From an uncultured delta proteobacterium (GTDB lineage Bacteria > Myxococcota_A > Polyangia > Polyangiales > Polyangiaceae), in NCBI GenBank assembly GCA_963763745.1, contig CAVXQJ010000016.1, forward strand, positions 449,029-513,028: a stretch of DNA of 64,000 nucleotides, read 5' to 3'. The translations under genes and the position numbers were made by a program. The notes under the pieces are model-generated. The model ran no database searches and was not told where the DNA came from. It worked only from the letters and a program-made list of their open reading frames with translations. Of this stretch, positions 30,732-58,964 are shown piece after piece (positions within the stretch are counted from its first letter, which is position 1; the number at the start of each line of letters is the position of its first letter).

Positions 30732-32628
30732 GTGTGTGGCATTGCTGGCGTCTTTGGTCTGAGTCGCGTGAGCCTGACGCGACGGATTTCGCGCGGGCGA
30801 TGTGCTTGCGCATCCGTCATCGCGGTCCAGATGGGCAGGGGACCACGTTCGCTGCACGACGTTGCGCTCGGAATGGTCCGCCTCGCGATCGTCGACGTCG
30901 AGCACGGCAAGCAACCGATGCTCAACGATGACGGAGCAGTCGCGCTCGTCTTCAACGGCGAGATTTACAATGCGCCGGCGTTACGACGTGAGCTCCAGGA
31001 TGCGGGCGTTCGATTTCACACGCGAAGCGACACGGAAGTCATTTTGCGTCTCTACGAGCGTGATCCGCACGACGTCGAAGCGGCATCTCGCGGGCATGTG
31101 GGCGTTCTGCGTTCACGATCGACGTCGGCGCAGACTCGTCTTGAGTCGAGATCGCTTCGGCATCAAACCGCTTTACTTCGTCGACCGCGGAGCGCGCACT
31201 CGCGTTCGGATCGGAGCTTGGTGCTTTCGAGCCGCTTCGCACGACTACCAAGTTCGCGCCGGCGTTCGCGATCGATCACGGGGCCGCTCACGCGATGCTC
31301 GCGTGGTCGTACATCCCCAACGAAGACACGATCTTCGAAGGCGTCAAGCGTCGTCGCTCCGAGCACGCGCCTCGAAGTCGATCTCGAGACGGGCAGCGCA
31401 GACGACGACGACGTCACTACGTCGTTCGACCGTCCGACGAAGCCTCGCGCGTGAGAGCCTTCCACGACGCGTGCGCGCTGATCGAGCCGCTCCTGCGCCG
31501 ATCGGTACGCGAGCACCTCGAGAGCGACGTGCCCATCGCCGCTTTCTTGAGTGGAGGAATCGATTCTTCGCTGATTCTCGCGCTGGCTGCCGAAGAGTCG
31601 CACGCAAACCGATTCGTGCATTCTGCATTGGTTTCCGCGAGCCGCGTTTCGACGAGTCGCCATTCGCGCGCCGCGTCGCGGAAAAACTCGGCGTGGATCT
31701 GCACGTTGAAGTCTTCGACGAAGCATCCGCTGCAGCGTCTCTTGACGATGCGCTCGCCGCATACGACGAGCCGTTCGGTGATTCGTCGAGCCTCGCAACG
31801 TTCATGCTGTCGCGCGTCGTCGCGACGAACGCACAAGGTCGCGCTCGGCGGCGACGGTGGCGACGAGGTGTTCGCCGGGTACCACAAACATCAAATCGTT
31901 CGCATTCGTCAGGCGCTCGGGCGCGTCGCCCAAGCTGCGCGATGGTATGCGCGGGTCGTTGCTCGCGCACTGCCTGCTCGCACGGATCGCTCGAGCGCGT
32001 CTCGCCGAGGCGATGCGAGTCGTTCGACGCGTCGCGCGCGGGCTCGCAAGGGCGACGACTGCTGCTTACTGCGCGCTCACCCAGGTCGCGTCGCTCGACA
32101 AGGTCGCTCCGCTCGTCGTGAGCCCGGCGGCCCCGGCCCGATTCGTGGAGCCCATCCTTCGCACGTTTGCCGAAGCAGGAGGGAGCCGAGCTGCAACGAA
32201 CGCTCGTATGCGATCTCGCGAACGTGCTCCCGAACGACATGCTCACGAAAGTCGATCGCGCGAGCATGGCGTGCGGGCTCGAGGCTCGCGTGCCGATGCT
32301 CGATCATCGCGTCGTCGAAGCCGGGCTTGGATTGCCTGCGAAGTTCACCATCGCCGGTTCCGGTAAGCGTGTGTTGCGCGAGCTGTATCGGCGCCGCTTC
32401 GGAGAGGAGCTCGCGAATCGGAAAAAAACCGGATTCAGCGTGCCGGTCGAAGCTTGGATGCGCGGACCGCTCGCATCGAAGTGTGCGGATATGATGCACG
32501 GGCACTCGGACTTGTTGCATATGTCTCGCGAGCTATGGAGCGAGTGGCTTGCGCGAGATCCACAAGCGTTATGGCACGCGTTTGCGCTCCGCTCTTGGGA
32601 AGTGGCGCGCGCTGATGGAGTGCGCTGA
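30732..32628 (+). pseudogene. asparagine synthetase (glutamine-hydrolysing) family amidotransferase paralog 1, heavily frameshifted (at least 8 shifts)
   Basis: The pieces MCGIAGVFGL (GTG start, Cys2 nucleophile), REPDATDFARAMCLRIRHRGPDGQG, LAIVDVEHGKQPMLNDDGAVALVFNGEIYN, LAGMWAFCVHDRRRRRLVLSRDRFGIKPLYF, AAFLSGGIDSS, VALGGDGGDEVFAGY and the C-terminal ...MACGLEARVPMLDHRVVE... are scattered over three frames. Confidence 0.75.
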
Positions 32629-35133
32629 ATGGACGCGACGACGAGACGCGTCTGGGGAACATGGATATTCGCGCTAGCGGTCATTGGGGCTCCGCTCGCG
32701 ATTGGTGCGCTCGACCGAAGAGTGATGTGCGTCATGGCTCTTGTTATCGTCGTCGGTACAGCGCTCGTCCTCACCGCGTCGGAGCCTTATGGGCCCCGTC
32801 GGAGCGCGTCGATGCTCGTCGCGCTGATGGCGAGCCTGCTAGGATTCACGGCGCTACAAACGATTCCGATTCCTGCGGGCGTCGCTAGTCGGTTGAGCCC
32901 ACATGCCGCCGACATTTGGGCACGGTGCCTGCGGCCGCTTGGGGAAGCCGGACCTCGATGGCATCCATTGACCGTCGACCCACCTGCGACGCACCTCGAG
33001 GTTCTTCGATGGGCGACGTACCTCGTCGCGCTGCTCGGCGCACTCGCTATAGCGCGGACTCGCGAAGGAGCGAGGTTCTTGGTGCGCGTGCTCGTCGTCG
33101 GCGGAGTGTTGATCGCCGTTGCTTCCGTGATGCACGCCGCTCTCGGGCTCGACAAGGTCTACGGAGTCATCCGTCCGAAAACGCAAGTTGGGTGGATCGC
33201 GCCGCTCCTCAACAGCAATCACGCTGGAGGCTACGTCAACATTGCGTTGATGCTCATGGCGTCTGCCGTCATCTCGAAGGCGCCCGTCATACCGCGTATG
33301 CTCGCCATCGTCGGGTCGGTGGCCCTCGTTGCGTTCGAGCTGTGGAACGCGTCGCGCGGCGCGGCGGGGACGATGGTGCTCGGCCTGCTCGCGCTCGTAA
33401 TCCTGCATCGTCGCCACGGGCGCGTCGCGCCCGCGCACGGCGCCGTTCTTCCCGCGCTGTTGATACTCGGCGGCGTCGGAATGCTGGTGCTTGGCGCGTT
33501 CGAGAGCTCCGCGCGGGGTATCGCGGACACGAGCCTGACGAAGTTGAAGATCGTCGGCCGAGCCATCACGACGATGGTTCCCGCATATCCGTTTTTCGGT
33601 GTGGGACGTGGCGCGTTCGAATCATCATTTCCGGAGTTCATGAACGCGCGAAACGAGGGGTTCGTAGTCTTCACGCACCCGGAGAACCTCGTGGCGCAGT
33701 GGTTGTGCGAGTGGGGAGTCGTCGTGACGCTCGTCGCCGTGGGCGTGCTCGCAGTCGCGCTGCGTTCGCGAAACGCGCTCGCGCGTGGCGCAATTGCGAT
33801 TGGCGCTTGGGTGGCGCTCGTCGTCGTCGCGCTTCAGAACCTCGTGGATTTCAGCTCCGAGACTCCGGGCGTGATGCTCGCGCTCGTTGTGTGTGCGGCG
33901 ATCGTGACGTCCGGGAGTGGGCATCGCAGAAACGCTGATCGAGCGGACTCCTTCGCAACGCACCCGAATGCGGTCGCGGTGGTCTCCGCGATGGCGGTCG
34001 GACTCGCGTGTGCGTGGGTGTGCATCGAACGTGCGGAGGTTCTCGTCGACGCAAAACCGCACGTGCGCGACGCACTCTTCGACGCACGGTCGTCGCGCGA
34101 GGAGCGCACGATGCTCGAACGCAACTCGATGCTCGCTCATCCCGCTGAGCCGTACTTCCCGTTGCTTGGTGCGTTGCGCGCCGTCGCAGACAAGCAAGAC
34201 GTCCTTCCTTGGATCGAGCGCACGCTTGAGCGCGCGCCTATCTATGCGCCGGCGCATCTCGTGTTTGCGCGGTGGCTGCGTTCCCGATCTCCGTCGCACG
34301 CGCGGGTCGAATATCGCATCGCGACCGAAGAACTCATGGGTCCGCCAGCAAGTGAACTCTTGCCGCTCGTGGGATCGTTCGACGATGCACTCGAGGCGGT
34401 GCCCATCGACGCGACCGCTGCCGATACGCTAGACGGGTTAGCGAGTCTGCTCGAAAAAACTCACCCAGCAACGCGCGCTCTGATCGACGCAGAAATCGAG
34501 CGCCGCACACCGGGGCGATTGTCGGTCACCGCCCGCGCCGCGAACGACGCCTATGACGACGCGGTCGCACCCGATGTTTCGCCGTGGTGCAACGGCGACA
34601 GTTGTGCCCGGGATGCGCTTGCCCGCGCGGCGGACCTGGAACGTCGTGCGCCGCAATCGAGTATTGGATACGCCCTGACAATGAAACTGCTCGCGCTGCG
34701 CGGTGACGTCCGTGGCGCTCTAGCGCACATGCACGACGCATGCACCTTGCTCCGCGATCGGAGCGCGTGTTTGGTCGAAGTCGCGACGCTCGCAACCACT
34801 TCAGGCAGTGCCGAAGCTACGGAGGACATCGATGCGCTTGCGCGTGAAGGCTGCCCATGGAGCGAAAGCTGCGCGCAGAATCTCTTGTCGGCAGTGGCGC
34901 TTGAGCAACAACGGCACAACAAAAATCGAGCGCTCGTGTTTCTTCGGCGCGCCGCGGCGATCGACCCCGATCGCGCCGATTTGCAGGAGAGCGTTGCAGT
35001 ACAAGCGGCCGCCGCTGGCCTCCATGGAGAAGCGGCTACCGCGTACGAACGATTATCCCACCTGCATCCGACAGACCCGCGGTATTCAAAGCTTGCAGAA
35101 GGTGAACGTTTGCTCTCGCGCAGCAGCAACTAG
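32629..35133 (+). CDS. O-antigen ligase/Wzy-like polymerase family membrane protein with long C-terminal TPR-like soluble domain
   Basis: ~10-12 TM helices with the FTHPENLVAQWLCEWGVVV motif typical of the O-antigen ligase (Wzy_C) family. ~350-aa C-terminal helical repeat region. Intact, 834 aa. Confidence 0.7.
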   Translation: MDATTRRVWGTWIFALAVIGAPLAIGALDRRVMCVMALVIVVGTALVLTASEPYGPRRSASMLVALMASLLGFTALQTIPIPAGVASRLSPHAADIWARCLRPLGEAGPRWHPLTVDPPATHLEVLRWATYLVALLGALAIARTREGARFLVRVLVVGGVLIAVASVMHAALGLDKVYGVIRPKTQVGWIAPLLNSNHAGGYVNIALMLMASAVISKAPVIPRMLAIVGSVALVAFELWNASRGAAGTMVLGLLALVILHRRHGRVAPAHGAVLPALLILGGVGMLVLGAFESSARGIADTSLTKLKIVGRAITTMVPAYPFFGVGRGAFESSFPEFMNARNEGFVVFTHPENLVAQWLCEWGVVVTLVAVGVLAVALRSRNALARGAIAIGAWVALVVVALQNLVDFSSETPGVMLALVVCAAIVTSGSGHRRNADRADSFATHPNAVAVVSAMAVGLACAWVCIERAEVLVDAKPHVRDALFDARSSREERTMLERNSMLAHPAEPYFPLLGALRAVADKQDVLPWIERTLERAPIYAPAHLVFARWLRSRSPSHARVEYRIATEELMGPPASELLPLVGSFDDALEAVPIDATAADTLDGLASLLEKTHPATRALIDAEIERRTPGRLSVTARAANDAYDDAVAPDVSPWCNGDSCARDALARAADLERRAPQSSIGYALTMKLLALRGDVRGALAHMHDACTLLRDRSACLVEVATLATTSGSAEATEDIDALAREGCPWSESCAQNLLSAVALEQQRHNKNRALVFLRRAAAIDPDRADLQESVAVQAAAAGLHGEAATAYERLSHLHPTDPRYSKLAEGERLLSRSSN

Positions 35134-35234
35134 CTTAGTCTTAGCTAGCGCTCAGCGTGAAGTTTGACGGATCGGTCCTCACCGAGGAGTAGTCGAGGTC
35201 TTCGCCCATTTCGTCGCACTCTAATCATCTAGTG

Positions 35235-36992
35235 CTAGGCGATAGGCAGGAACAGAATGTCGAAAGCGGCATCCGCGGTAGCGGGTGCAGCACTCATCGC
35301 ATAGCCGACGAACCCGTTGGCTGGAGTTGTTTGCTTCATCACGCGTCCGGCCGTAAGTGTGCTGACGGTCACCGCATCCCCGACAGCGATAGACGCGGCG
35401 CCGTCATTGAGCACGGTCACCCGCTGGCCGACGCGAGCGACGCGCGTATTAACCATGGGCGACGCAGGATCCAGGCATGGCCCAAGGGCTTGGAACGATG
35501 AGTCTGACGTCTCTACGTGGGCCACGGTAGGCGCTCCATTAGTGGCAGTTCGCTTGACGAGCGCATTCGCGACTACGGTGGCGCTTGCGACTGCGAGGTC
35601 AGCCCAAACGCCAGACTGCACGATGACAGTACGCTTGGCTAAGGATCGGACGTTGGCTGCTAGCAGTGTGGGGGAATCGTGGATCTCCAATGAGTCGCAC
35701 GCAGAGTCTGCGGTGATGTAATTGGACGCGGCCGAATTGTTGACGACGAGGCCTCGAATCACTGTGCTCGCAACGGCCTTCAGCTCCAGCGTCGCCAGAA
35801 CAGCGACGGTATTGAAGCCTGTGTTGATGAGGCCATCAATGACAACTTGATTGACGTCTTGAAGTGAGACGCACGCCGTTGGACTGCCGATGATACTGGG
35901 GCTGAGAGTGTTGGACTCCATCTTGACGAACGAGACGTTGGACGTCGGACCACCAACGACGACGACAGAGCCGATGGCGCTCTCGTCAAAGATGCACCCG
36001 CGAATAACAACGCCGCGCTGCTGAGCGCCGGAGCCCGGTGGTTGTGAGTCATCGTGTCGGAACCATGGCCCCGCATTTGATGCGGTCTTGTCGGCGAGCA
36101 CATACCCGTTCATATGCCCAACATCATAGAACGTGCAGCAATCAAGCTCGACGTAGGCCGCGCCATTCGAGTGGACTACAGCGATAGGCGTAGTGCCGCT
36201 TATGGTCGCGCAATTTGTGAAGTCGCAGTTGCGAAAGACGACTGGCCCTACTTGGACGCGGACGACGTATTGAGCGCACGAAAAGTTGGCGAAGCGCACG
36301 CGCTCGAACACACACATATCCGTCGCGCTGACGGTAAAGCTGCTCGCGCAGTCCACGCCTGGCGTGGGTCCGTTGCCTAGGCAGGTGAGGTCGGCCGCCG
36401 AGAAGTCGTATATATTCGAGAAGATTGGCCCGTGTTCGCCACCGTTTTGGTATTGGATGATCGATGAGTCCATTCCGGTACCGCGAAGCCGAGCGGATGT
36501 CGTCAGACCGTTGAAGTCCCACGGGTTATTCGGCAATATGCTTGATAGCGTGAAGAGTCCTCGCGGGAAGAACCCCGTAAGTGGACTCTGCGGTAATGTG
36601 GCATTGTCCGCGCTGAGCGTGGTGAGCAAGACCCGCATGAGCTCAAAAGCCGAAGCGCAGTTTGTCGCGCCGGTCGCGTCAGCGCCGCAATCCATAACAA
36701 AGTCTACGTGTGGTCTACTCCCAATGGCGGCAACGAGGCCCCCGGCCGTGATGATGTGCGTGACCACGGCATTCGCAGCGTGGCAGGCGGCTGCCGTGCC
36801 CTCGATGCCGCGCACCACCGTGAACGTGGTCCCGTTCACGGCGGTGACGAGCAACAGCTCAGAGTGGATAAGGATGCGGAACTGTGGAACGGACGGGAAA
36901 GTTGCTGCAGATGCTACGACAAGCGACGTGGCGGTTGCCGTGATCGCGACGCTGAGCGCGGAGACGGCCTGGTTGGCGAATTGCTCCTGCAT
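35235..36992 (-). CDS. right-handed parallel beta-helix (pectate-lyase fold) repeat protein, 585 aa; possible glycan depolymerase or epimerase
   Basis: Start is M71 of the ORF (MQEQFANQAVSALSVAITATATSLVVASAATFPSVPQFRILIHSELLLVTAVNGTTFTVVRGIEGTAAACHAANAVV...). Many short beta-turn repeats rich in N/G/T/V/C (NCDFTNCATISG..., VVIRGCIFDES...). The N-terminal ~90 aa resembles the conserved head of phage tail-fibre/tailspike-like proteins (from memory, not checked). Confidence 0.55.
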   Translation of the reverse strand: MQEQFANQAVSALSVAITATATSLVVASAATFPSVPQFRILIHSELLLVTAVNGTTFTVVRGIEGTAAACHAANAVVTHIITAGGLVAAIGSRPHVDFVMDCGADATGATNCASAFELMRVLLTTLSADNATLPQSPLTGFFPRGLFTLSSILPNNPWDFNGLTTSARLRGTGMDSSIIQYQNGGEHGPIFSNIYDFSAADLTCLGNGPTPGVDCASSFTVSATDMCVFERVRFANFSCAQYVVRVQVGPVVFRNCDFTNCATISGTTPIAVVHSNGAAYVELDCCTFYDVGHMNGYVLADKTASNAGPWFRHDDSQPPGSGAQQRGVVIRGCIFDESAIGSVVVVGGPTSNVSFVKMESNTLSPSIIGSPTACVSLQDVNQVVIDGLINTGFNTVAVLATLELKAVASTVIRGLVVNNSAASNYITADSACDSLEIHDSPTLLAANVRSLAKRTVIVQSGVWADLAVASATVVANALVKRTATNGAPTVAHVETSDSSFQALGPCLDPASPMVNTRVARVGQRVTVLNDGAASIAVGDAVTVSTLTAGRVMKQTTPANGFVGYAMSAAPATADAAFDILFLPIA

Positions 36993-37420
36993 CACGGGGC
37001 CCCGACGCCAGGCTCTATCGACGCGAGCATCGAGAGCGGCGTGCCGAGCATGCCGGTGAATTGGGTCATTGTGATCTCGAGCTCTTCCTGCGTGGACGAA
37101 TCCTCCTTCCCAACGCAGCCCAGCAGCGCGGCGAGGGGTGAGACGCTTAGGAAAAATACGACCGAGCGGCGATGAGGGTCCACGCCACCGAATATACGGC
37201 ACCTCGTCCGAAGAACTAAGGGATCTCGCAATGGGTCACGCGCCGACGATGAAACGACGCGCGGAGTTGGTGTAAGTTGGCAGAATGTCAGATGGAATCG
37301 CAGTAGTTTGAACGTGCGAGCACGCGTATGCAACGCATGAGTGATGTCTCTTTCTCGTCGTGATCCAAGGGGCCAACGCGTGCACCGCGTCGGGCCAAAT
37401 GGTAAGACGGCGCCTCGACC

Positions 37421-38960
37421 ATGAGGGCATACATCGCCACGTTTGCGCTCGCGCTGGTCGTGTCGGCTGCGCTGACTCCTCTTGTTCGGCTGGTTGCGTT
37501 GCGTCTCGGTGCGACGTCGACGCCAGGCGGCCGAAACGTACACGTGACGCCAACGCCACGCCTCGGCGGTGTCGCGATTGTCATTGGCTTCCTTGCCCCG
37601 CTTGCCGCGCTGTTGTGTGTGAACTCTTCGGTCGCCACCTCCATTCGCAACGAAGCGCTACGCCCAATAGGGCTCCTCATTGGATCGCTAGCGATGTGTG
37701 TCGTTGGTGTGATCGACGACACCCGTCGCCTTCGAGCGAGTCACAAGCTTCTCGTTCAGGTGCTGACTGCAGCGCTTGCGTTTGGATGTGGGTTTCGGAT
37801 CGACTCCATCGCTCTCCCTTATTTCGGCACCCTGTCGATGGGAATTTTCGCTTTCGCCGTCACAGTTATTTGGATCGTCGGGATCGTCAATGCTGTCAAC
37901 CTGATCGACGGCTTGGACGGCCTCGCGGGCGGTGTCGTCCTGTTCGCCAGTTTGACGAACTTCGCAATCGCCGTAATCGAGGGCAACATTTTCATTGCGG
38001 CAATTACGGCATCGATTGTCGGCGCGGTTCTCGGGTTTCTATTTTTTCAATTTCAACCCAGCTCGCATTTTCATGGGCGACTCTGGAAGCTACTTTCTTG
38101 GTTATGCCGTGGCGACCGTCGCACTAGGTGGCCCGACGAGGTCGCAGAAGGCATCGACTGCTGTCGCGCTGCTCGTACCCTGTTTGGCGCTGGGAGTGCC
38201 CATCTTCGACACGCTCTTCTCGATGGTCCGTCGGTTCCTCGAGCGGCGCTCCATGTTTTCGCCCGATCGAGGCCACCTGCATCATCGGCTCATCGATATG
38301 GGTCTCACACATCGGCGCGCTGTGCTCACGCTTTACGGCGTGAGCGTCGTGCTATGTGTGTCAGCGATTGCGGTTACGTTCGGGCGCGGGTGGCAAGTAG
38401 GCCTTGCGGTGATTGTTGCCTCGTCCGTTCTGATGGCGCTCGTGCGCTTCGCCGGTTATTTCGAATATCTTCGAGTTCACCTGCGCCGCCGCGGGCGGAT
38501 GCGCAGTGGAGAGGCACAAGCGCTGCGTCGAGTCGTTCCCAACGCCATCGTGCAGCTGGCCGCGTGCAAGTCAGAGGCAGATGTTTGGAACAACGTTGAC
38601 GCGTTGACGGTGAAGCTGGAAAATCTTCACGCTGTCGTTAGAATTACGCGATTGTCGGACGGGAAGAGCATCTACCATTCCCCCACGCCGAGCAACGAGT
38701 CGAAGGACCTCGTAGTGATCAATACACCACTCGGCGACGAAGCAACGGCCGTCTCGCAAATCGTCGTCGCACTCGACATAGACAATGGTCTCGACATCGA
38801 AGTGGAGTTACTCGTGCAGTTGTTGGTAGATGCCATCGACGATGCGCTCGCGCACGTGAAGAGTCCGTCGGCTCGCTCATCTTCCCGTGTGACGGGCACG
38901 ACTCATGTTTGTGAGGCGATTGCGCCGACAGATCAGGTCGAGCCAAGCAGCTCGGCGTAG
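37421..38960 (+). CDS. WecA/WbpL-like undecaprenyl-phosphate N-acetylhexosamine-1-phosphate transferase (GT4 / MraY family) with ~170-aa C-terminal extension; one frameshift in a T6 run near 38046
   Basis: VIDDTRRL, IVNAVNLIDGLDGLAGG motifs. After ...GAVLGFLFF the frame shifts at ctattttttcaatttc to give ...NPARIFMGDSGSYFLGY...HLHHRLID... (second frame, ORF 37995..38960). Confidence 0.8.
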
Positions 38961-40066
38961 AGCTTGAGTGTGGCATGGGCGATTTGGTCGCTAGCGAACT
39001 CCATTGCAGCGAGATCACGACCACGTTGACCCATGTTCTTCCGCAAGACGGGGTCATCAAGAAGCCGGTCGATGGCGACCGCGAGCGCGCGCGCGTCGCG
39101 CGGAGGTACGAGCAGCCCGTTATCTTCGTGGCGTACGATTTCCCGGCATCCGGCGACGTCCGTCGCAACAATCGGCCGGCCACAAGCGGCTGCTTCCAAC
39201 AACGCTTTAGGCAAACCTTCTCCGTAGGACGGAAGGCATACGATTGTGGCCTGCGACAGCACTCGAGGCATATCATCACGCCAGCCGAGGAGTTCGACGA
39301 CCCCCTCGGTCGCCCACTCCCGAAGTCTAGCAAGCGGGACGGAGGCCGGATTGCCCGGATCCGGCTTCCCTGCGAGCGCGAAGCGCACGCTCGGTCGAGC
39401 ACGTCGCACAATCCGCGCAGCATCCACAAATTCACCAACGCCCTTGTCGTAAAGAAGCCGGGCCGGCAGAACCACGAGTGGGTCTCCAAGAGGCTCTGCT
39501 GTCTGCCGATACTCGTCGATATCGACACCTGCACCGCGAATCAGAGCGACGCGATCAGCGCGGATAACACCCCACGATACCCACGCAGCCACGTCGTCCG
39601 GATTCTGGAGTATGACGCGTCCGTTTGGCGCGTTGAGAAGAACGCGCAGCGCGGGCAACAGCGCCTGCCGGAGCGCGCGAGCGAAAAGCTCACCGGACAT
39701 GAACACATAGCCCATCCCCGCGATTGCGTTGACTACGGCGGGGACTCGTGTGAGCCGTGCCGCAACTGTCCCGTAAAGGATGGGCTTGAGTGCGACATGA
39801 TGTACAAGGTGAGGCCGCAGCGACGCATACAAGCGAGTGAGGCGCGTGACTGTCGCCAAGTCGGTCAGGGGGTTTCGGCCCTGACGGTCCAACGCGATTG
39901 GTACATAATGAAGGCCAGCCGCCTCGATTGTCTTGCGGTATGGGCCAGGTGGCGTGGCGACGTAAACATCGTACCCGCTCGCCGACACTCGCGTCGCCAA
40001 TGGCAAACGGTGACAACAAAAATACCAATCGTTCGCGACAAGGTAGAGAATACGACGGGGTGTCAT
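38933..40066 (-). CDS. glycosyltransferase family 4 (group 1)
   Basis: Start is M57 of the ORF (MTPRRILYLVANDWYF...). C-terminal ...VCLPSYGEGLPKALLEAAACGRPIVATDVAGCREIV matches GT1. Its 3' end overlaps the 3' end of wecA by 28 bp (convergent). Confidence 0.75.
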   Translation of the reverse strand: MTPRRILYLVANDWYFCCHRLPLATRVSASGYDVYVATPPGPYRKTIEAAGLHYVPIALDRQGRNPLTDLATVTRLTRLYASLRPHLVHHVALKPILYGTVAARLTRVPAVVNAIAGMGYVFMSGELFARALRQALLPALRVLLNAPNGRVILQNPDDVAAWVSWGVIRADRVALIRGAGVDIDEYRQTAEPLGDPLVVLPARLLYDKGVGEFVDAARIVRRARPSVRFALAGKPDPGNPASVPLARLREWATEGVVELLGWRDDMPRVLSQATIVCLPSYGEGLPKALLEAAACGRPIVATDVAGCREIVRHEDNGLLVPPRDARALAVAIDRLLDDPVLRKNMGQRGRDLAAMEFASDQIAHATLKLYAELLGST

Positions 40067-40149
40067 GAATCCCACGGCGATGATATCATGCGCTATGACC
40101 CTATGGTCACGACACGTGCGCCCAACGTGAAATACCGCGCAACCTGCTG

Positions 40150-49046: not shown

Positions 49047-50387
49047 TCACGAGGGGCGCGCCGAGAACCCACGGCGCACGGCCGATCGAAACGCGGCCAG
49101 TTCCTGTCGAAAGTCCGGACGAATGAAATGTAACGGCGATTTACCGGAGACGACGCGCAATAGACCGAGCGTCATGCCAAAACCAATGAGCGTCGTGAGC
49201 ACGGTAGCCGTCGCGGCTCCGGCGCCGCGAAGCCGTGGGACCAATACGAAGTTTAATAACAACCCCAATACGCCAATTGCCACGGTGATGGCACCGTTGA
49301 TCCCGAACGCCCCTGCCTTGATGACGTAGGGCGCCGCGAACGACGACACCGACAGAGTCCACGCTGCCAAGATGAGCAGGCGAAACACGTCGCGCGCTTC
49401 CTCGAACGCGACGCCGCCGAACAGGTGCAACAACGGCCCGGCAAACAGCATCGACGGAAGTGTAAGGAGCACGCCACCGTAGACTGCGAGACGCAAAGAC
49501 CGAATCGTCACGGCAAATTCGTCGGACGCATGGATAACCCATGGGTAGAGCGCCATCTGGAAGGCGGCAAAACCGGTAAACAAGCCGAACGCGAGCGTAA
49601 GTGCGGCCGCAAAGAGCCCAGATTGCTTGTCCCCACAATAATGAAACACGATGAGTTGGTTAGCCTTCGTGTACGCGAATACGGATACGGTCGCGACGTG
49701 CTGCTTCAACCCGGCAGAGAGGAACTGCCAGACCGTTGCCGGCGTGAGGCCGCTGACGGGCGAGCGCGTGTCAATGCCCAATTTGCTCAGGAGCGTAACG
49801 CAACCGACGCCTTGAACGGCAATCGCCGTCAGAATCGCAAAGCGAACGTCGATGCGTCGCAGGAAGAACGCCGGGATGACGCACCCGACGTTCACGGTCG
49901 TCTGAAATATGGTCACGAGGGCGACAAGCTTCACGCGGCCGAGCGCCTGTCCCAACGTGACGAGGTTGACGCAGAAGATCGTCGTCACCAGCAGACCGAT
50001 CAAAAGCGGCGCATGAACGATCGCCTCCAACGAAACTTTGCTGGGCCATGCTTCGAACACAGTCAACAGCCCCGCCGCCGCGAGTACGGCCGTGGTGAGG
50101 CTACCGAGCACGACGATCAGCAAGCGCGCGCGGTCGCTCACGTCATATCGGTCGCGGTTGGCAAAGTGATAGATCGCTGTGTTGAGGCTGAGCCCGCAGA
50201 GCGAAACAAAAAGCGCGACCCACGTTTGCATCTCCGCGAGGACGCCGCGTCCGGCCGGCAAGAGAGCGCGGTTGATGAGAGCACCAGCGAACATAGCCCC
50301 TACGAGTTGCGAAACTTGCCCGGAGGCCGTCCAAAAAAAAGAATGTCTGAGGCTGATGATGGCACGCTCAGGCGACCTTATGCTCAT
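49047..50387 (-). CDS. Wzx-like polysaccharide flippase (MOP/PST family)
   Basis: 12-14 TM helices. Typical PST organisation with N-terminal ...WTASGQVSQLVGAMFAGALINRALLPAGRGVLAEMQTW. Last gene of a 5-gene minus-strand operon (ATGA overlaps). Confidence 0.75.
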   Translation of the reverse strand: MSIRSPERAIISLRHSFFWTASGQVSQLVGAMFAGALINRALLPAGRGVLAEMQTWVALFVSLCGLSLNTAIYHFANRDRYDVSDRARLLIVVLGSLTTAVLAAAGLLTVFEAWPSKVSLEAIVHAPLLIGLLVTTIFCVNLVTLGQALGRVKLVALVTIFQTTVNVGCVIPAFFLRRIDVRFAILTAIAVQGVGCVTLLSKLGIDTRSPVSGLTPATVWQFLSAGLKQHVATVSVFAYTKANQLIVFHYCGDKQSGLFAAALTLAFGLFTGFAAFQMALYPWVIHASDEFAVTIRSLRLAVYGGVLLTLPSMLFAGPLLHLFGGVAFEEARDVFRLLILAAWTLSVSSFAAPYVIKAGAFGINGAITVAIGVLGLLLNFVLVPRLRGAGAATATVLTTLIGFGMTLGLLRVVSGKSPLHFIRPDFRQELAAFRSAVRRGFSARPS

Positions 50388-51517
50388 TGCGACTCGTGCA
50401 CAGCGGCGTGAAGGGCTTCAACTGTTGCGCGGACATCGTCCTCAGGCATGCCTGGGTAAAAAGGCAGAGATAGCGTTTCATCGCCGATTGTTTCTGCAAT
50501 TGGGAACCGACCGCGGCGAAATCCGAATCGATTTACGAAGTAGGTTAGTAGGTGGATTGCGCGATAATTCACGACCGTACCAACGCCCGCCTCCCCAAGG
50601 CGCGCAACGACGTGGTCACGAATACGACCGTCCACGCGAACGGGAAAGAGATGTCGTGCGTGGACACCCGCTCGCGTTGCTGGCAGCCGAACACCGACGA
50701 TGGTCGAGAGTTTTCGTTCGTATGCGCGCGCCAGCGCGTGACGCGACGCTAGTTTTGCCGGCAATCGATTGAGCTGCGGGAGAAGTAGCGCGGCCTGGAT
50801 GTTATCCATGTTGTACTTCCAGCCAAGCACTAACATGTCCCAATGCCGATAACCTTCACGCTCGCGATCGGCGGCCGTCTTCGTCATGCCGTGCGAACGC
50901 AACAAACGTAAGCGTTCGGCGAGGTCGTTTCGGTCCGTCGCAACCGCCCCGCCTTCGCCGCATGTGAGGTTCTTCGTTGCATAAAAGCTGAAACAGACGA
51001 CATCCGACAGTTCGCCCGGTCTGACGCCGTCCCGTTCGCCCTCGATGCAATGCGCGGCGTCCTCGATGATCGCGAGGCCGTGCTGCTTGGCGACCCGGTG
51101 GATCTCGCGCATGTCGCACATCAAGCCGTACAGGTGAACGGGGATGATCGCCTTCGTCCGAGGTGTGATGGCTGCTTCGACCAGTCGTGCGTCGATGTTT
51201 GCGGTGTCGGGTTCGACGTCTACGAATATCGGCGTAGCCCCGGCTTCGAGGATAGCGGTGGCTGTCGCGATGAAAGTCATCGGCGTCGTGATTACTTCGT
51301 CGCCGGGACCGATGCCGAGCGCCATCAGCGCCATGTGCAACGCGCCCGTGCAACTCGTCACGCCGAGGACGTGACGACGTCCAATGAAAGCTGCGAACTC
51401 GCACTCGAAACGAGCGACGGTTTCTCCCGTCGTCAAGATCGGACCCGCCAGAACCGAGGCGATGGAGTCGATCTCAGGTTGGCCGAGGTCGTGCCGGTAG
51501 AACGGAACGCGCCTCAA
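50384..51517 (-). CDS. DegT/DnrJ/EryC1/StrS family PLP-dependent sugar aminotransferase
   Basis: ...FECEFAAFIGRRHVLGVTSCTGALHMAL..., FSFYATKNLTCGEGGAV (Lys in the SFxxxK-like motif). Full length, 377 aa. Confidence 0.85.
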   Translation of the reverse strand: MRRVPFYRHDLGQPEIDSIASVLAGPILTTGETVARFECEFAAFIGRRHVLGVTSCTGALHMALMALGIGPGDEVITTPMTFIATATAILEAGATPIFVDVEPDTANIDARLVEAAITPRTKAIIPVHLYGLMCDMREIHRVAKQHGLAIIEDAAHCIEGERDGVRPGELSDVVCFSFYATKNLTCGEGGAVATDRNDLAERLRLLRSHGMTKTAADREREGYRHWDMLVLGWKYNMDNIQAALLLPQLNRLPAKLASRHALARAYERKLSTIVGVRLPATRAGVHARHLFPVRVDGRIRDHVVARLGEAGVGTVVNYRAIHLLTYFVNRFGFRRGRFPIAETIGDETLSLPFYPGMPEDDVRATVEALHAAVHESQ

Positions 51518-52542
51518 TGCAGCTCCCTCGTGCCGTCAGCCAAGACGATGGGTATCTGCCGCATCCACCGCTGAGGAAGCCACCAGTCTTGGTTCGACTT
51601 ATACCAATCGATCGTCTTGCGCAGCCCCTCCTCGAACGAAATGTTCGACTGCCAGTCCAAGAGCTTTTTAGCTTTATTGGCGTTGCATGTGTGCCGAAAC
51701 ACTTGCCCGGGCCGATTACCTACAAAGGCAACTTCGCTCTTGGGGTTATCCATGAGTCGTCTTATCGCGACTGCAATCTCAAGGACACTGTGGTCCTGTC
51801 TGGTACCTAGGTTGATGACTTGACCGATGACGCGCTCGCGATCGGTGTGAATGAGTCTGTCGAGCGCGGTGCAATGGTCGTCGACGTGCAGAAAATCGCG
51901 GCGCGCCGAGCCGTCACCGTGGACGGTCAACGGCTCACCGAGGATGCAACTCGTGATAAAGCGCGGTACGACTTTCTCGAGGTGCTGATAGGGCCCGAAG
52001 TTGTTGAATGGGCGAACAATGATCGCGGGAAGCTGATAGGTCTGCTGATATGAGTACACTAGTCTGTCCGCGCCGCACTTTGCAGCGGCGTACGGGCTCA
52101 TCGGGTTGAGCGGATGGTCCTCGTCCATGTCTTCGGCAATGGCCGAGCCGTAGACTTCGGAGGTCGAGATGTGCACGAAGCGTTCGACGCGGTCGCGGTG
52201 CCGTAGAACGCTGTTGGAAACGACCTGCGTTCCGAGGACGTCGGTTTCGAAAAACAGTCGGTTGTCGAAAATGGATCGCGTGACGTGAGACTCCGCGGCA
52301 AAGTGCAGGACAATATCGGACCGGCTCACGAGCATGTCGACGAGGTCGGCGTTCAGCACGTTGCCGTACCAGAATTCGAAGCGCGAAGAGTTGAGACCGC
52401 CGCCGGGTAAGTTGGTGACGCTACCGGCGTAAGTGAGCGCGTCGAGGACTAGAAGCTGGTATTGTGGATATCTATCGTAGAGATAGCGGACGAAGTTACT
52501 CCCGATGAATCCTGCGCCACCAGTGATCAGAACCGTTTTCAT
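51514..52542 (-). CDS. NDP-hexose 4,6-dehydratase (dTDP-glucose 4,6-dehydratase-like, RmlB family)
   Basis: Start is M101 of the ORF (MKTVLITGGAGFIGSNFVRYLYDRYPQYQLLVLDALTYAGS...ISTSEVYG...YAAAKC). ATGA overlap with the upstream WbqC-like gene. Confidence 0.8.
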   Translation of the reverse strand: MKTVLITGGAGFIGSNFVRYLYDRYPQYQLLVLDALTYAGSVTNLPGGGLNSSRFEFWYGNVLNADLVDMLVSRSDIVLHFAAESHVTRSIFDNRLFFETDVLGTQVVSNSVLRHRDRVERFVHISTSEVYGSAIAEDMDEDHPLNPMSPYAAAKCGADRLVYSYQQTYQLPAIIVRPFNNFGPYQHLEKVVPRFITSCILGEPLTVHGDGSARRDFLHVDDHCTALDRLIHTDRERVIGQVINLGTRQDHSVLEIAVAIRRLMDNPKSEVAFVGNRPGQVFRHTCNANKAKKLLDWQSNISFEEGLRKTIDWYKSNQDWWLPQRWMRQIPIVLADGTRELH

Positions 52543-53228
52543 CGTGAGCCCTCCAATACGGCTGTACTCTCCGGTCCCATGTTCAGTAGTAGATCGAGGC
52601 CGGAAAGATACGGGCAGAAATCGCCGTGCAGTTGACGATAGACAGGATGCTCGTAACCGTGCCACACGACCGAGATGCCCGCGCGAACGAACATACTTTC
52701 GTCGAGGTAGTCCTTTGCCGAGTCGCCGCTGAGATAGCGGTCGGCACCGAAGTGAGAGCAGATCTGGACGAGGCGTTCGCTTTGCCCTCCGTGGATCCCG
52801 AGTTGCGAGGATCGCGCGATTGGCCGCCGCAGCCCAAGCCATTCACACATCAACTTGACGACTTGGATATCGAGATCGACGAGTCTCGTCCACGACTGCA
52901 TGAGGAGCTCCTCGAGTTTGGGCATATAGAGGCGCTTGTGAGGCGAGCGGGCGTAGCTCTGCGCGATGCTGGCGACGTGTTTGCGAGCCCAGTGCGTCCG
53001 GTTGTCGACCTCGACGTCCAGGAGCGTTTGCGTACTGCGGCCTTTCGACAAGACAGGAACCGTGAGCCAAATGGGCCCGCTTGCGGACTTGATGCGATTA
53101 CGATTGCGCCAGCCATGCTTGTCGAACTGCACGTCGTCGTAGTAGACGAAGAAATCGCAACGTCGCAGTTGATCGAAGAAGCCGAGCCACGGAAGGTAAC
53201 CGGGTTGCAAGACGACCACAGTAGTCAT
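52539..53228 (-). CDS. WbqC-like family protein (O-antigen cluster associated, function unknown)
   Basis: MTTVVVLQPGYLPWLGFFDQLRRCDFFVYYDDVQFDKHGWRNRNRI... matches the characteristic N-terminus of the WbqC-like family. Confidence 0.65.
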   Translation of the reverse strand: MTTVVVLQPGYLPWLGFFDQLRRCDFFVYYDDVQFDKHGWRNRNRIKSASGPIWLTVPVLSKGRSTQTLLDVEVDNRTHWARKHVASIAQSYARSPHKRLYMPKLEELLMQSWTRLVDLDIQVVKLMCEWLGLRRPIARSSQLGIHGGQSERLVQICSHFGADRYLSGDSAKDYLDESMFVRAGISVVWHGYEHPVYRQLHGDFCPYLSGLDLLLNMGPESTAVLEGSR

Positions 53229-53761
53229 CGGCCGATGTTAGTTGTCTGGGAGTATTCGTCCGCGAGGATTGACATCACGATCGAGTCGACGGGTGTGCCG
53301 TCGCGTCGTGTGTCGTGCCTCAAACGACCTTCGGTCATGAACCCGAGTTTCTCGTAGAACGCCTGCGCTCGGGGATTGTCGGCGAGCACTCGCAAATGCA
53401 CGCGATCGAGACGAAGAGCGGTGAACGCCCGACCAAGTAACTGCCTGACGGCAGTAGAGCCACCGCCACTTCCGCGACGCTCGCCCAGGTAGATCCAAAG
53501 CTCGCACTTCCTGCGGGTAACGTCGATGTTGCACAGCCCGCAGTTGCCAACATGACGGCCGTTCTCGACAATTGCGTAGTCCTCACGCGTCCGTTCGAGC
53601 CTTTTCGCGTGCCAATACGCGCGGTTGCTATCGGCAGTTGGTGCGGAGGTACAATCGAGTTGTTCGCGAAGTGCGGGATCTTGCAGCCAATCGTGAGTGG
53701 AGGCGAGGTGCTCGTCCGAGAGGCGAACAAGACGAACTTCATCGAGTGCAACCAACGACAT
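53225..53761 (-). CDS. GNAT family N-acetyltransferase
   Basis: ...HVGNCGLCNIDVTRRKCELWIYLGERRGSGGGSTAVRQLLGRAF... acetyl-CoA binding Q/RxxGxG/A motif. First gene of the operon. Confidence 0.75.
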   Translation of the reverse strand: MSLVALDEVRLVRLSDEHLASTHDWLQDPALREQLDCTSAPTADSNRAYWHAKRLERTREDYAIVENGRHVGNCGLCNIDVTRRKCELWIYLGERRGSGGGSTAVRQLLGRAFTALRLDRVHLRVLADNPRAQAFYEKLGFMTEGRLRHDTRRDGTPVDSIVMSILADEYSQTTNIGR

Positions 53762-54834: not shown

Positions 54835-54841
54835 CCCGTTG

Positions 54842-55747
54842 TCACTTAACGGGCTTGTAGAACCTGCGATTGCGGAAGGTGTGCACGTAGAGTCGTCCGT
54901 ACTCGTTCACGAGCGCATCCTTCAGCCGCCGGGGCATAGCGCGTACAACTCGACGAAGCACCGCGCGGCCGCGTGGCGTCTGTTGGAGAGCGCCCGGCCC
55001 TTCGTTCCACACGAGCGCGTAGTCGCTTTGCTGCGGAGCTCGCGCAAATGGCTCGGAGAGATGTCGTGTCTTGCGCGCATGAATCATGAGAAAGACCGGG
55101 AAACGGTTTGTTAGCGTAACGCGGTTTCGAAGCCGTGCTGGGTCCATGACGTCGTAAGGTCTCCCGCGAGCGCCGAACTCGCCCCCGAGATATTTCATCT
55201 CGATCGCCTGGAGGCGCTCGACGACGAACCCCGTATCGGGGCCGAGGCACCGGTAATAGAGCTCGGGGCTGAATTGGTAGAAGCCGTGTCCGAATTGGTT
55301 GTTGGCGGGCGTTCCTAGAAAGAGGTGACCGCCAACCTTGAGCGCGCGCATACAATTAGCGAGCGCTACTGGGAAGTTGAATATGTGCTCCAGGCAGCCA
55401 CCTTCGAGGACCGTATCGAAGGTCTCTTCCATGCCGTTCGGGAAGGGGAGATTCATGTCATGAAGGATCTGTGCACCTTCGTAATCGGAGTTGTCGACGG
55501 CGCTTAGTTGGTTGACGCCGAGGAAGACGCGGAAAAACTCGTCCGCGTATTTCTGTTTGACGCCGCGCGCGACGCGACCATCGATGTTGGCCTCGCGCGC
55601 GAAAGCGTCGAGTTGGCGCGAGCTCAGGTAGAATTCTTGGCGGCCGAGCGTGAGCATGTGGCCGAAAGGAACGCCGGCTCGTTTGGCGTCCCAAACAAAA
55701 ATCGCATTGTCGTTGGTTAAGGCCATTGAGAGATCGGATAGCCGCAT
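54842..55747 (-). CDS. class I SAM-dependent methyltransferase
   Basis: ...VLEGGCLEHIFNFPVALANCMRALKVGGHLFLGTP... motif II/III region. 301 aa. Confidence 0.65.
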   Translation of the reverse strand: MRLSDLSMALTNDNAIFVWDAKRAGVPFGHMLTLGRQEFYLSSRQLDAFAREANIDGRVARGVKQKYADEFFRVFLGVNQLSAVDNSDYEGAQILHDMNLPFPNGMEETFDTVLEGGCLEHIFNFPVALANCMRALKVGGHLFLGTPANNQFGHGFYQFSPELYYRCLGPDTGFVVERLQAIEMKYLGGEFGARGRPYDVMDPARLRNRVTLTNRFPVFLMIHARKTRHLSEPFARAPQQSDYALVWNEGPGALQQTPRGRAVLRRVVRAMPRRLKDALVNEYGRLYVHTFRNRRFYKPVK

Positions 55748-55769
55748 GCCTTTTGCGTGTCAAACCGCA

Positions 55770-56999
55770 TCACGCGATTGCGCGCAACAGCGTGGCGTAG
55801 CGTTCGACGCCAGCTTGCAGACCGAAATGCGGAGCGGTGATATCGCGCGCGCGCGCGATGGTTTCGGCGTCCGGCGCTGTATCGACAACACGCTTGGCTG
55901 CCATCCGAACGCAGGAGTCGTCGATGGAATCGAGGACGAAACCAGAGCCCGCCCGGCGTACCCACTTCATCATCTCCACGTTGCAACCGTGTACAATTGG
56001 CCTTACGCCTGCGGCAAAGAATTCTGCGAGCTTCGTAGGCATCGAACCGCGTTTCGCGGCGAGGTCCGGCAAGAGCAGGATACCCCAGTCAATCCAATGA
56101 ACCCATTGGGGCATCTCATCGTGTCGGGCGCTTGCGACTGTGAAGCGATCCGGACTCATGCCCGTGTGAGACAGCGCATCAACGTAGGCTTCGCGCTGTT
56201 GCGTCAGCACGAGTAGATGCGCGGTGTCGCTCGCTTCGCAAGCGAAGCCAGCCAACCGAAGCGCGGAATCGGTTGCATAGGACCGATTGAGAGACCCGAC
56301 AATCGCGATGACGTTCTTGTCTCGAAGGCGTCGCTGAATGTCCAGCGGAACGACCGTGCTGCTACTGGGCTTGGCGGGTCGCGACGACGAAATCCCAAAC
56401 TCATGATAGTCCGCGCAGGTAGGAACCACAATAACGCGCGTTGCGTCCCTTCGCCCGAAGGCACCGTCCACGACCTCGCGTGCGTGAAGTGCTGTGAGCG
56501 TCACGACCGCCTTCGCGTCCCGGTACAGGTGGCGTTCGACGAACTTGCCCGCCGCATACGACGACGGTGTCGAGAACCACTCGGGACGCTCTTCAATCCA
56601 GCAGCCGCGCGCATCGAAGAGATACGGAATGTCCGTTAAGCGTTTGGCCGCTTCGGCGACAAGAGCGCTCTGATACCCGCGCGCATGAACGAGGGCGATG
56701 CGCGAGCGTCGTACGATTCGAAGCACGGATGCGCTCATGCGCGCGAAGGCCTCCGCCGATCGAGCTGCCGAGCCGTTGAGGTCCACTCCAATTGCAGTCC
56801 ATCCCACTCCGAACCGAGACAGCGTGCTCCGTACGTGTTCCACGTTCGCGCGATCTTCGATGTCGCGCGTGCGTTCGACCGACAGCAGATGATAGGGGAA
56901 ACCGTGCCTCGCCAAGGCGACGATCACACGCACGACTTGCGAAAAGCCTAACGGTTGAAGCACACCGTCGAACGACACGTAGAGCAGCGACGACGTCAT
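55770..56999 (-). CDS. glycosyltransferase family 4 (group 1)
   Basis: Start is M5 of the ORF (MTSSLLYVSFDGVLQPLGFSQVVRV...). C-terminal ...MPTKLAEFFAAGVRPIVHGCN... GT-B. Confidence 0.65.
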   Translation of the reverse strand: MTSSLLYVSFDGVLQPLGFSQVVRVIVALARHGFPYHLLSVERTRDIEDRANVEHVRSTLSRFGVGWTAIGVDLNGSAARSAEAFARMSASVLRIVRRSRIALVHARGYQSALVAEAAKRLTDIPYLFDARGCWIEERPEWFSTPSSYAAGKFVERHLYRDAKAVVTLTALHAREVVDGAFGRRDATRVIVVPTCADYHEFGISSSRPAKPSSSTVVPLDIQRRLRDKNVIAIVGSLNRSYATDSALRLAGFACEASDTAHLLVLTQQREAYVDALSHTGMSPDRFTVASARHDEMPQWVHWIDWGILLLPDLAAKRGSMPTKLAEFFAAGVRPIVHGCNVEMMKWVRRAGSGFVLDSIDDSCVRMAAKRVVDTAPDAETIARARDITAPHFGLQAGVERYATLLRAIA

Positions 57000-57078
57000 T
57001 CGCGTGACCACACGTACCGCGTCCGCGCATGTACAGCAAGTTGCTTCAGCGCGCGACCTGGGCTACGTGATTGCTGAG

Positions 57079-58964
57079 ATGTGCGGCATCTTGGGCTCCG
57101 TGTTCGACGCTCAATGCATGGACGTCGCCGGCGCGCTCAAGCGCCTACGACACCGTGGGCCCGACGCCGAGGGCGTCTTTCGCGACGAGGGCGTGGTGCT
57201 TGGGCACACGCGGCTTTCGATTCTCGACTTAAGTCCGCTCGGCGTGCAACCGATGCGGAGCGCCGACGGTCGAGCCGTCGTCGTCTTCAATGGTGAAATA
57301 TACAACCATCATGAGCTTCGTGCGGAACTCCAGAAGTGCGGCCGTTCGTTTCGCTCTCGCTCCGATACGGAGGTGATCGTCGAAGGGTATTGCGAATACG
57401 GTGTAGCGTTTTTCGAACGACTTGACGGGATGTTCGCCATCGCCTTGTTCGACCGCAAACAGCGCCGACTCGTTCTCGTGCGCGACCGAACTGGGAAGAA
57501 GCCGCTCTTCTACACCCGCTGCGGCGGCAACGTACGATTCGCCTCGGAGATACGTGCCCTGTTCGCGCTTGGCACTCCGTCGACACTCCGATTGGCGTCG
57601 TTGCCGCTGCTGCTGTCACTCGGGTATGTGCCGCCGCCCGCGACGTTGTACGAACACGTTGCGCAGCTCCCACCGGCCACGATCCTTGACATCACGGAGA
57701 ACGCGTCGCCCGAGGTTCGCACGTTTTGGAGGGCGCCGTTCAACGCGGAGCCGCTCGACGTCGGCGTAATCGAAGCAACGCGCGAGGTGCGGCGCCTCAC
57801 CGAGCAAGCGGTGCTGAGACGCCTTGAAGCGGACGTGCCGCTCGGTGCATTTCTGTCGGGCGGCATCGATTCGTCGGTCGTCGTCGGGTTGATGGCGCGC
57901 ATGTCGACGAAGCGTGTGAAGACATTCTCCATCGGATTTTCGCAAGACGCCCGTTTCGACGAAACGCGTTACGCGCGAATCGCCTCCGATGCATTCGACA
58001 CCGATCACACTGAATTTACCCTCGAGCCAAGCTCGATCGACTTGCTCGATCGTCTCGTCGAGGCTCACGACGGTCCGTTCGGGGATTCGTCTGCAGTCCC
58101 CACGAGCGTCGTATCGATGCTGACGCGCAAGCACGTGACGGTAGCGCTTACGGGCGACGGTGGAGACGAGTTGTTCGCTGGATACAACATCTTTCTCCGC
58201 GTGACGGCCGCCGAAGCCGTGCCCCAACCGCTTCGAACGCTCGCACGGGCGCTAACAACACACCTTCCGTTAGACGGTCAAGCCTTCAATCGGTTGACAC
58301 GCGCCCTACACGTGGCGGCGCTATCGCTTCCCGAACGAATGCTGCACTGGCAGTCGTATTTCACGAACGACCTTGGCGCGCTCTTGACGCGCGAGCTGCG
58401 CACGAGCGTCGATTTGGATGCCGCTAAGAGTTGGATTCGTCTGCTCGGCGCGCGCACGGGGGCCGCCTCTCCACTAACACGCGCGTTGCAGATCAACTTC
58501 GATTCGTACCTACCATTTGACTTGCTGGTGAAGGCCGACCGTGCATCGATGCTTCATTCGCTAGAGCTCCGATCCCCGTTCCTCGACACCGAGCTCATCG
58601 AATACGCCTCACGGCTGCCGGATCGCTTCCGCCGGCGTCACAGAGTCACCAAATGGATCTTGCGGCGCGCCTTCCGCGACATTGTTCCAGCGCCGATTCT
58701 TCACGCGGCAAGATGGGATTTGGCATGCCGCTCGCGACGTGGTTTCGAACGAGCCTTCGGGAGCTCGTCCGAGACACGCTATGCAGGTCGGCTCGCCTCG
58801 GGCAGTTCGTCGATCTGGCCTACGTCGACCGCTTGCTCGATGAGCACGACAGCGGCGTGCGCGATCACCATAATCCGATATGGCTTCTCTTGACGATGGA
58901 GCGCTGGCTGCATCTTCTCCCCACGTGGACGCGAATGACGAACGCACCAGAGGTATCAGTATGA
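57079..58964 (+). CDS. asparagine synthetase family amidotransferase paralog 3 (one frameshift ~58705, probably a G-run indel)
   Basis: MCGILGSVFD (Cys2), TRLSILDLSPLGVQPMRSADGRAVVVFNGEIYNHHEL, AFLSGGIDSSVVV, ALTGDGGDELFAGY, LELRSPFLD. After ...APILHA the frame shifts to ...KMGFGMPLATWFRTSLRELVRDTL...*. Confidence 0.8.

Follow-up and report, generated by a model that had tools for sequence, protein, structure and literature searches.

Three AsnB-family amidotransferase genes with a predicted role in glycan amidation in a polysaccharide locus of an uncultured Polyangiaceae bacterium

The window analyzed here is a stretch of 64,000 nucleotides (nt) from an uncultured delta proteobacterium of the Polyangiaceae (GenBank assembly GCA_963763745.1, contig CAVXQJ010000016.1, positions 449,029 to 513,028), and it carries three genes for AsnB-family glutamine-dependent amidotransferases, numbered p1, p2 and p3 in window order. 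The names of the nearest homologs make a chromosome from Myxococcota (Polyangia) probable. Housekeeping genes (mdh, sucCD, ndk, dapD, radA, alaS, ffh) make up the initial 28 kb. The remainder of the window, starting at ~28.3 kb, has a gene content that points to a polysaccharide locus of the Wzx/Wzy type, at least 36 kb long, in which all three genes lie:

30732–32628, + strand: p1, AsnB-family glutamine-dependent amidotransferase, ~630 amino acids (aa) once 13 frameshifts are corrected
45719–47574, + strand: p2, AsnB-family amidotransferase, 618 aa once one T is restored
57079–58964, + strand: p3, AsnB-family amidotransferase, 628 aa once one base is restored

When the window was searched by tblastn with the reconstructed proteins as queries, exactly these three genes, which share the + strand, came up as AsnB-like, and no fourth. 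All three proteins begin with fMet-Cys. The PP-loop reads SGGIDSS in p1, SGGVDSS in p2 and SGGIDSS in p3, and the second motif reads GDGGDEVF, GDGADELF and GDGGDELF, respectively. An earlier, sequence-only reading had placed three AsnB-family genes at these positions, which the searches and motifs bear out; its SGGxDSS motif is present in all three proteins, whereas its DGADEL occurs literally in p2 only. Its description of the locus is confirmed in part. The p1 gene starts with GTG and its stop codon abuts the start of a gene for a Wzy_C-domain protein. None of the three paralogs (0/3) has an intact open reading frame (ORF). In p2 there is a 1-nt deletion, one T short in the run 'GTTATTTTGCG' at ~46173–46176, and in p3 a 1-nt deletion at ~58700. 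The deposited gene calls are shortened accordingly (371 aa for p2, P0104; 604 aa for p3, P0244; P-numbers denote database proteins), which places the frameshifts in the deposited sequence itself.

All three proteins score above the cut-off of the general model for asparagine synthase (glutamine-hydrolyzing), TIGR01536 (416, 481 and 448 bits for p1, p2 and p3; cut-off 267.1), and below the cut-off of NF006949, which describes E. coli-type AsnB (268, 311 and 279 bits; cut-off 499). The top-scoring model for all three is TIGR03108, the XrtA/PEP-CTERM amidotransferase or eps_aminotran_1 family (440, 513 and 508 bits; cut-off 816.9), and p2 and p3 align to it from end to end. We aligned p1–p3 and their orthologs with E. 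coli AsnB (1CT9), the residue numbering of which is used here. The proteins belong to the same two-domain fold family and keep Cys1, Arg49, Asn74, Glu76, Asp98, SGG[IV]DS, Asp351, Tyr357, Lys429 and Lys449; the glutaminase residues and the PP-loop, from Cys1 to SGG[IV]DS, are conserved in the orthologs too. The alignment thus shows the glutaminase and adenylation machinery to be intact in all three. They differ from E. coli AsnB in overall identity (28–32%), in an Asp in place of Glu348, which the orthologs share, in an insertion of ~90 residues after the GDGxDE motif, and in the columns aligned to Lys376, Asp384 and Arg387, which diverge in p1–p3. These differences suggest that the acceptor pocket is unlike that of E. 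coli AsnB.

These comparisons bear on two alternatives to a function in glycan amidation. One or more of the proteins could be ordinary asparagine synthetases that supply asparagine and lie in the locus by chance, as might be read from the TIGR01536 scores of all three and from the name asparagine synthase that their homologs carry in public sources. We regard this as very improbable: p1–p3 fail the AsnB equivalog model NF006949, their acceptor-side columns are unlike those of E. coli AsnB, and across genomes the genes of all three types form part of conserved glycan modules, their stops and starts overlapping with those of their neighbors. The other alternative is a non-canonical chemistry of the AsnB fold that yields a hydroxamate, a lactam or an intermolecular amide instead of a primary amide. 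The closest solved structures are AsnB-fold enzymes, and p2 matches the hydroxyamidotransferase 7ylz (2e-80) better than AsnB 1ct9 (2e-53); models of lasso-peptide cyclases and macrolactam cyclases are matched more weakly. The scores on these cyclase models lie far under the respective cut-offs, however, and the full set of glutaminase residues in all three proteins predicts ammonia as the nucleophile, which makes this second alternative very improbable.

The three proteins are about as similar to each other (32–37% pairwise identity) as each is to E. coli AsnB. A neighbor-joining tree was built from 52 sequences, comprising p1–p3, 11 database homologs of each, the AsnB genes of fetched loci and E. 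coli AsnB as the outgroup; it holds no bona fide exosortase-type reference, as the ten candidate homologs all scored below the TIGR03108 cut-off. In this tree p1, p2 and p3 each fall in a clade of their own with a bootstrap of 100/100, and E. coli AsnB is a distant outgroup on a long branch, which makes p1–p3 ancient paralogs as judged from the tree. The proteins do not group with the housekeeping enzyme of E. coli, and together with the failed NF006949 model and the best match to eps_aminotran_1 this supports the earlier proposal of glycan-locus amidotransferases as opposed to housekeeping AsnB.

The gene neighborhoods of the three types are conserved in different ways, as seen in database loci fetched for their AsnB homologs (numbered with the prefix L). 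Homologs of p1 reach 80% identity and several are named Labilithrix or Polyangiaceae. In all of L014, L015 and L016 the p1 ortholog is flanked on one side by a Wzc-like kinase gene, transcribed divergently, and on the other by a gene for a Wzy_C protein of ~835 aa, the start of which overlaps the AsnB stop; L015 and the window also share the ffh-CBM9-TPR genes upstream. Homologs of p3 come from Polyangia or Myxococcales, and in L018, where the p3 ortholog is 77% identical, the arrangement of a GT4 glycosyltransferase gene on the minus strand, AsnB, a GT2 glycosyltransferase gene and an epimerase gene on the minus strand is kept. The sequence-only reading had taken three paralogs to imply several distinct amidation reactions or substrates, and distinct deep clades with different conserved neighbors fit such distinct roles. 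Several AsnB genes occur in one glycan locus elsewhere as well: L009 carries three within 13 kb, and a pair is present in each of L002, L014, L019/L020 and L023. As multi-AsnB glycan loci recur in unrelated genomes, the clustering of these genes is not due to chance.

The same reading had counted at least eight frameshifts in p1 and described the gene as apparently dead. When p1 is aligned, with frameshifts allowed, against P0124, an intact homolog (82% identity), 13 shifts appear between 30766 and 32190, which is consistent with that count; most of the additional bases are a single inserted G or C that does not lie in a homopolymer. The indels do not end with p1 but continue into its divergent neighbor:

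28310–30588, − strand: Wzc-like chain-length determinant/tyrosine autokinase, 18 frameshifts, no stops

This gene is 80% identical to its L015 ortholog, has a GNVR domain and scores 155 bits on TIGR01007 (cut-off 108) and 222 bits on TIGR01005. Together p1 and the Wzc-like gene form a block of 31 indels in 3.8 kb (28.4–32.2 kb) with sharp edges, and the flanks of the block are clean: a single frame suffices for each of eight genes between 19.0 and 28.2 kb, and likewise for the Wzy_C gene with its 2.5 kb. The 631 and 757 corrected codons of p1 and Wzc contain no in-frame stop. The corrected proteins are 80–82% identical to intact orthologs, a level matched in the same comparison by ffh (80%) and an aldo-keto reductase (80%). 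In a relative-rate check against four outgroups, corrected p1 is 73.9, 69.2, 67.4 and 64.9% identical to them and its intact sister P0124 is 74.4, 68.3, 68.5 and 65.8% identical; by this measure the corrected sequence shows no rate acceleration. The decisive point is the housekeeping gene dapD (8305–9111, + strand), which, compared with E. coli DapD, carries shifts at 8839, 8867 and 8961, within 122 nt and with no stops, so that the clustered indel errors reach outside the glycan locus.

A genuine decayed pseudogene, lost together with Wzc and perhaps the whole locus and with it the amidation step or the polysaccharide, would account for the 13 and 18 frameshifts in p1 and Wzc, for the further single shifts in p2, p3, a WecA-like gene (near 38045, possibly also 38436) and a GT2 gene (near 59645), and for the truncated gene calls. 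The complete lack of in-frame stops, an identity to intact orthologs as high as that of ffh, unaccelerated divergence, the sharp block edges at 28.4 and 32.2 kb, the three shifts in dapD and the scattered G/C insertions outside homopolymers all argue against decay and leave it improbable. Clustered indel errors of assembly are the most likely source of the frameshifts in p1 and elsewhere, and p1 is probably functional in the organism, contrary to the earlier description of it as dead. Outside the block, the genes for GT1, Wzx, DegT, a short-chain dehydrogenase/reductase (SDR), WbqC, GNAT, two GT4, an epimerase and a membrane protein (40150–41394) are intact relative to their orthologs. With four or five scattered shifts in ~29 kb, hits in both p2 and p3 are not significant (rough estimate ~0.08). 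Two further explanations of the interrupted frames were rejected. Programmed frameshifting at the T-run of p2 does not agree with orthologs that read straight through, nor with shifts scattered over unrelated genes. Stop-codon reassignment was considered as many same-frame stop-to-stop segments abut, but TGA, TAA and TAG all occur as stops at these junctions, and they stand where genes normally end. The case calls for caution with long contigs such as this one, which was probably assembled from long reads: a frameshift-riddled gene needs to be compared with its neighbors and with housekeeping genes before it is labeled a pseudogene.

The substrate question had earlier been tied to a pair of genes at the end of the window:

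62124–63290, + strand: UXS-like SDR, domain from ~residue 58, overlapping the Ugd-type gene
63272–64000, + strand: UDP-glucose 6-dehydrogenase-type gene (Ugd), cut by the window end, the only such dehydrogenase gene in the window

The pair, which the sequence-only reading had recognized in the same locus as the amidotransferases, is confirmed at the level of homology. Ugd scores 258.7 bits on TIGR03026 (cut-off 189.8), with UDP-glucose 6-dehydrogenases as the best named equivalogs, and the best solved relative of the UXS-like SDR is human UDP-glucuronate decarboxylase 2b69 (1e-46; 162 bits vs 107 for the next family). Ugd and UXS together are the classical route to UDP-xylose, in which UDP-glucuronic acid is consumed and its carboxylate removed. 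The pair would therefore fit UDP-xylose synthesis as well as a supply of uronates. Uronic acids are plausible acceptors of p1–p3 by analogy with WbpS and WbqG, with PGN_1234 of Porphyromonas gingivalis and with the wbpS product of Helicobacter pullorum. The UDP-uronic acid proposed earlier as the substrate is thus plausible through this analogy but is not established by the locus itself and gains no support from synteny; its link to Ugd is weakened by the UDP-xylose route and by the neighborhoods of the orthologs described below, and the earlier interpretation as a whole is supported in part.

For p2 the neighborhood suggests an acceptor other than a uronic acid, because the gene is tightly linked to genes for WbqC, a GNAT acyltransferase, a dehydratase and an aminotransferase. 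The window holds the following members of this p2 cassette:

44444–45583, + strand: GT1-family glycosyltransferase, ~40% identical to the cassette glycosyltransferases in L002 and L023
49047–50387, − strand: Wzx-like flippase, 47% identical to the Polysacc_synt (Pfam) gene of L023, ~10 hydrophobic segments
50384–51517, − strand: DegT aminotransferase, PseC/ArnB/WecE-like, in the amino-sugar module of the cassette (50384–53761)
51514 to ~52545, − strand: NDP-hexose 4,6-dehydratase-like SDR, resembling dTDP-glucose 4,6-dehydratase
52539–53228, − strand: WbqC-family protein (PF08889)
53225–53761, − strand: GNAT acyltransferase

The last four of these genes are all intact. Among the sources of p2 homologs (58–75% identity) are Methylobacter, Rhodocyclaceae, Magnetospirillum and Magnetococcales. 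In L002, L022, L023, L024 and L025 a p2-type AsnB gene is directly followed by (GNAT)-WbqC, with overlapping stops and starts. The next genes after WbqC are usually those for an NDP-hexose 4,6-dehydratase-like SDR and a DegT aminotransferase, to which L023 adds Wzx and GT1, and two radical S-adenosylmethionine (SAM)/SPASM genes often lie upstream of the p2-type AsnB. The window contains the same gene set in a rearranged form, in which the + strand carries GT1 and p2 and the − strand Wzx-DegT-SDR-WbqC-GNAT, and the proteins of its amino-sugar module are 60–74% identical to those of L001, L002 and L022–L024. The G+C content falls from ~0.64–0.66 to 0.56–0.61 over window positions 35000–64000, consistent with horizontally acquired modules. 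These identities to loci of other phyla, taken with the lower G+C content, fit horizontal acquisition of the p2 cassette. Comparison of the WbqC protein with solved structures gave no match, whether the query was the single sequence or a profile, and its single-sequence AlphaFold model was unusable (predicted local distance difference test score, pLDDT, 34).

It is possible, though less likely than not, that p2 and perhaps others of the three act together with the other cassette enzymes (WbqC, GNAT, 4,6-dehydratase, aminotransferase) and not on a uronic acid; an amino-dideoxy sugar would then receive an amidated N-acyl group or a carboxamide of another kind. The conserved order AsnB-(GNAT)-WbqC in L002 and L022–L025, where stops and starts overlap, and the presence of the same genes in the window speak for this function. 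So do the likeness of the SDR to dTDP-glucose 4,6-dehydratase and of the aminotransferase to PseC, ArnB and WecE. No uronate dehydrogenase was found in the fetched flanks of L001 and L002 or among the called genes of L022–L025, which points the same way. On the other side, gene linkage alone does not demonstrate a shared substrate, and in E. coli O121 wbqC reportedly shares a cluster with wbqG, whose product forms a uronamide. The function of WbqC is moreover unknown (PMC5532660). A further step, which we propose only tentatively and consider somewhat unlikely, would make p2-type AsnB, WbqC and GNAT the conserved core of a horizontally mobile cassette for an uncharacterized amidated amino-dideoxy sugar, spread over Myxococcota and Proteobacteria, the latter including Rhodocyclaceae and Magnetococcales. 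If this is true, the acceptor of the p2-type AsnB clade is not a uronic acid. The conserved, mobile and widely distributed AsnB-GNAT-WbqC cassette is the lead with some novelty in this locus.

Family knowledge and the retained residues suggest the following chemistry for p1–p3. Glutamine would be hydrolyzed by the N-terminal Cys, and the ammonia released would pass to the PP-loop synthetase domain. There the acceptor carboxylate would be adenylated by ATP, and the acyl-adenylate would react with the ammonia to give a primary amide. As acceptors, sugars of the glycan made by this locus, or substituents on them, that bear a carboxyl group are the most likely. Of the three enzymes, p1 and p3 would probably act in the manner of WbpS on uronic-acid residues; p2 is part of a cassette that moves horizontally (AsnB-GNAT-WbqC-4,6-dehydratase-aminotransferase-Wzx-GT1), and its role may instead be in making an amino-dideoxy sugar with an N-acyl group.

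Taken together, the gene content, the family comparisons and the pattern of indels make it likely that the window holds a Wzx/Wzy locus with three amidotransferases for glycan carboxyl groups, in which the frameshifts are assembly errors and p1 is probably functional. Several points weigh against this combined reading. The sole uronate-forming dehydrogenase of the window has a UXS-like decarboxylase as its partner, through which the carboxylate would be lost. In L001, L002, L009, L014, L015, L018 and L019 the ortholog has no UDP-sugar 6-dehydrogenase gene within ~10 kb, and L012 is the only fetched locus with such a dehydrogenase near the ortholog. On the assembly alone, the single shifts in p2 and p3 are indistinguishable from real mutations. 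Finally, p1–p3 remain far under the TIGR03108 cut-off, at 440–513 bits against 816.9, even though this is their top-scoring model. Ten further AsnB homologs from glycan loci score 457–628 bits on it and none (0/10) reaches the cut-off, so that sub-threshold scores are typical of this broad group. No exosortase domain and no XrtA was found among the window ORFs scanned with Pfam or NCBIfam, in a locus that extends beyond the window and has some small ORFs outside the scan.

Among characterized systems, the eps_aminotran_1 family has been assigned to WbpS and WbqG (PMC7468200). Deletion of the P. gingivalis wbpS homolog PGN_1234 leads to loss of glucuronamide (PMC7468200), and a wbpS mutant of H. 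pullorum incorporates HexNAcA in place of HexNAcAN (PMC6025236). WbpS (Pseudomonas aeruginosa O6), WbqG (E. coli O121), PGN_1234 and H. pullorum WbpS resemble p1–p3 in being glutamine-dependent AsnB-family enzymes encoded among glycosyltransferases. The likeness to WbpS and WbqG is by family model, eps_aminotran_1 being the best NCBIfam model for p1–p3, not by direct sequence comparison. For these known enzymes the conversion of uronic acids to uronamides is shown by genetic evidence; p2 differs from them in being tied to the WbqC/amino-sugar cassette and not to a uronate pathway of the WbpO/WbpP type.

The occurrence of three AsnB-type genes in one glycan locus is a layout that is already known and ordinary. 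The wbm locus of Bordetella bronchiseptica has three dispersed glutamine-dependent amidotransferase genes, wbmC, wbmI and wbmZ (PMC2615507), and the 75-kb psc1 exopolysaccharide cluster of Rubrivivax gelatinosus, syntenic in Thauera and Rhodoferax, has three genes named wbpS (PMC3684757). Both share with the window the dispersal of three such genes over one polysaccharide locus, and both differ from it in phylum and in neighboring genes; psc1 is in addition a PEP-CTERM/exosortase-type cluster, and the window ORFs that were scanned include no exosortase. The locus is therefore one more polysaccharide cluster with several AsnB-type amidotransferases. By neutralizing acidic sugars, amidation alters both the charge of a surface glycan and its antigenicity.

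The remainder of the locus contains several GT4, GT1 and GT2 genes, methyltransferases, epimerases and polytopic membrane proteins, of which the following were assigned:

32629–35133, + strand: 834-aa polytopic membrane protein with a Wzy_C domain (2.5e-10), O-antigen ligase/polymerase-like, intact
37409–38463, + strand: WecA/MraY-family initiating phosphoglycosyl transferase, with the frameshift near 38045
38933–40234, − strand: GT4 glycosyltransferase, TIGR03088-like (118 bits)
42406–44235, + strand: B12-binding radical SAM enzyme of the KedN5-like C-methyltransferase subfamily (193 bits, below cut-off)
55770–57011, − strand: GT4 glycosyltransferase, divergent from p3, 63% identical to its L018 ortholog
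58961–59945, + strand: GT2 glycosyltransferase, overlapping the p3 stop, with the one frameshift near 59645

As this gene content fits a Wzx/Wzy-type locus, the product would be a heteropolysaccharide with heavily modified sugars. The Wzy_C gene is 60% identical to its L015 ortholog in a single frame and encodes many hydrophobic segments. An ORF on the + strand at 38975–40150, equally long as the GT4 gene opposite, is spurious, since homology identifies the minus-strand gene as the GT4. A sugar C-methyltransferase (Methyltransf_13/14) is encoded at 60837–62084 on the − strand; with the KedN5-like radical SAM enzyme and three further SAM methyltransferases it suggests a heavily methylated glycan.

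A 655-aa ORF at 35235–37202 on the − strand has no Pfam or NCBIfam match. In L015 the same slot holds a CapD/WbpM-like gene, likewise of 655 aa, from which the window ORF differs, and an assignment as CapD-like was rejected. The ORF has an N-terminal motif of the phage tail-fiber type (PHROG 38058, 1e-9, residues 76–153) and a weak tailspike match, and its product may be a β-helix glycan depolymerase.

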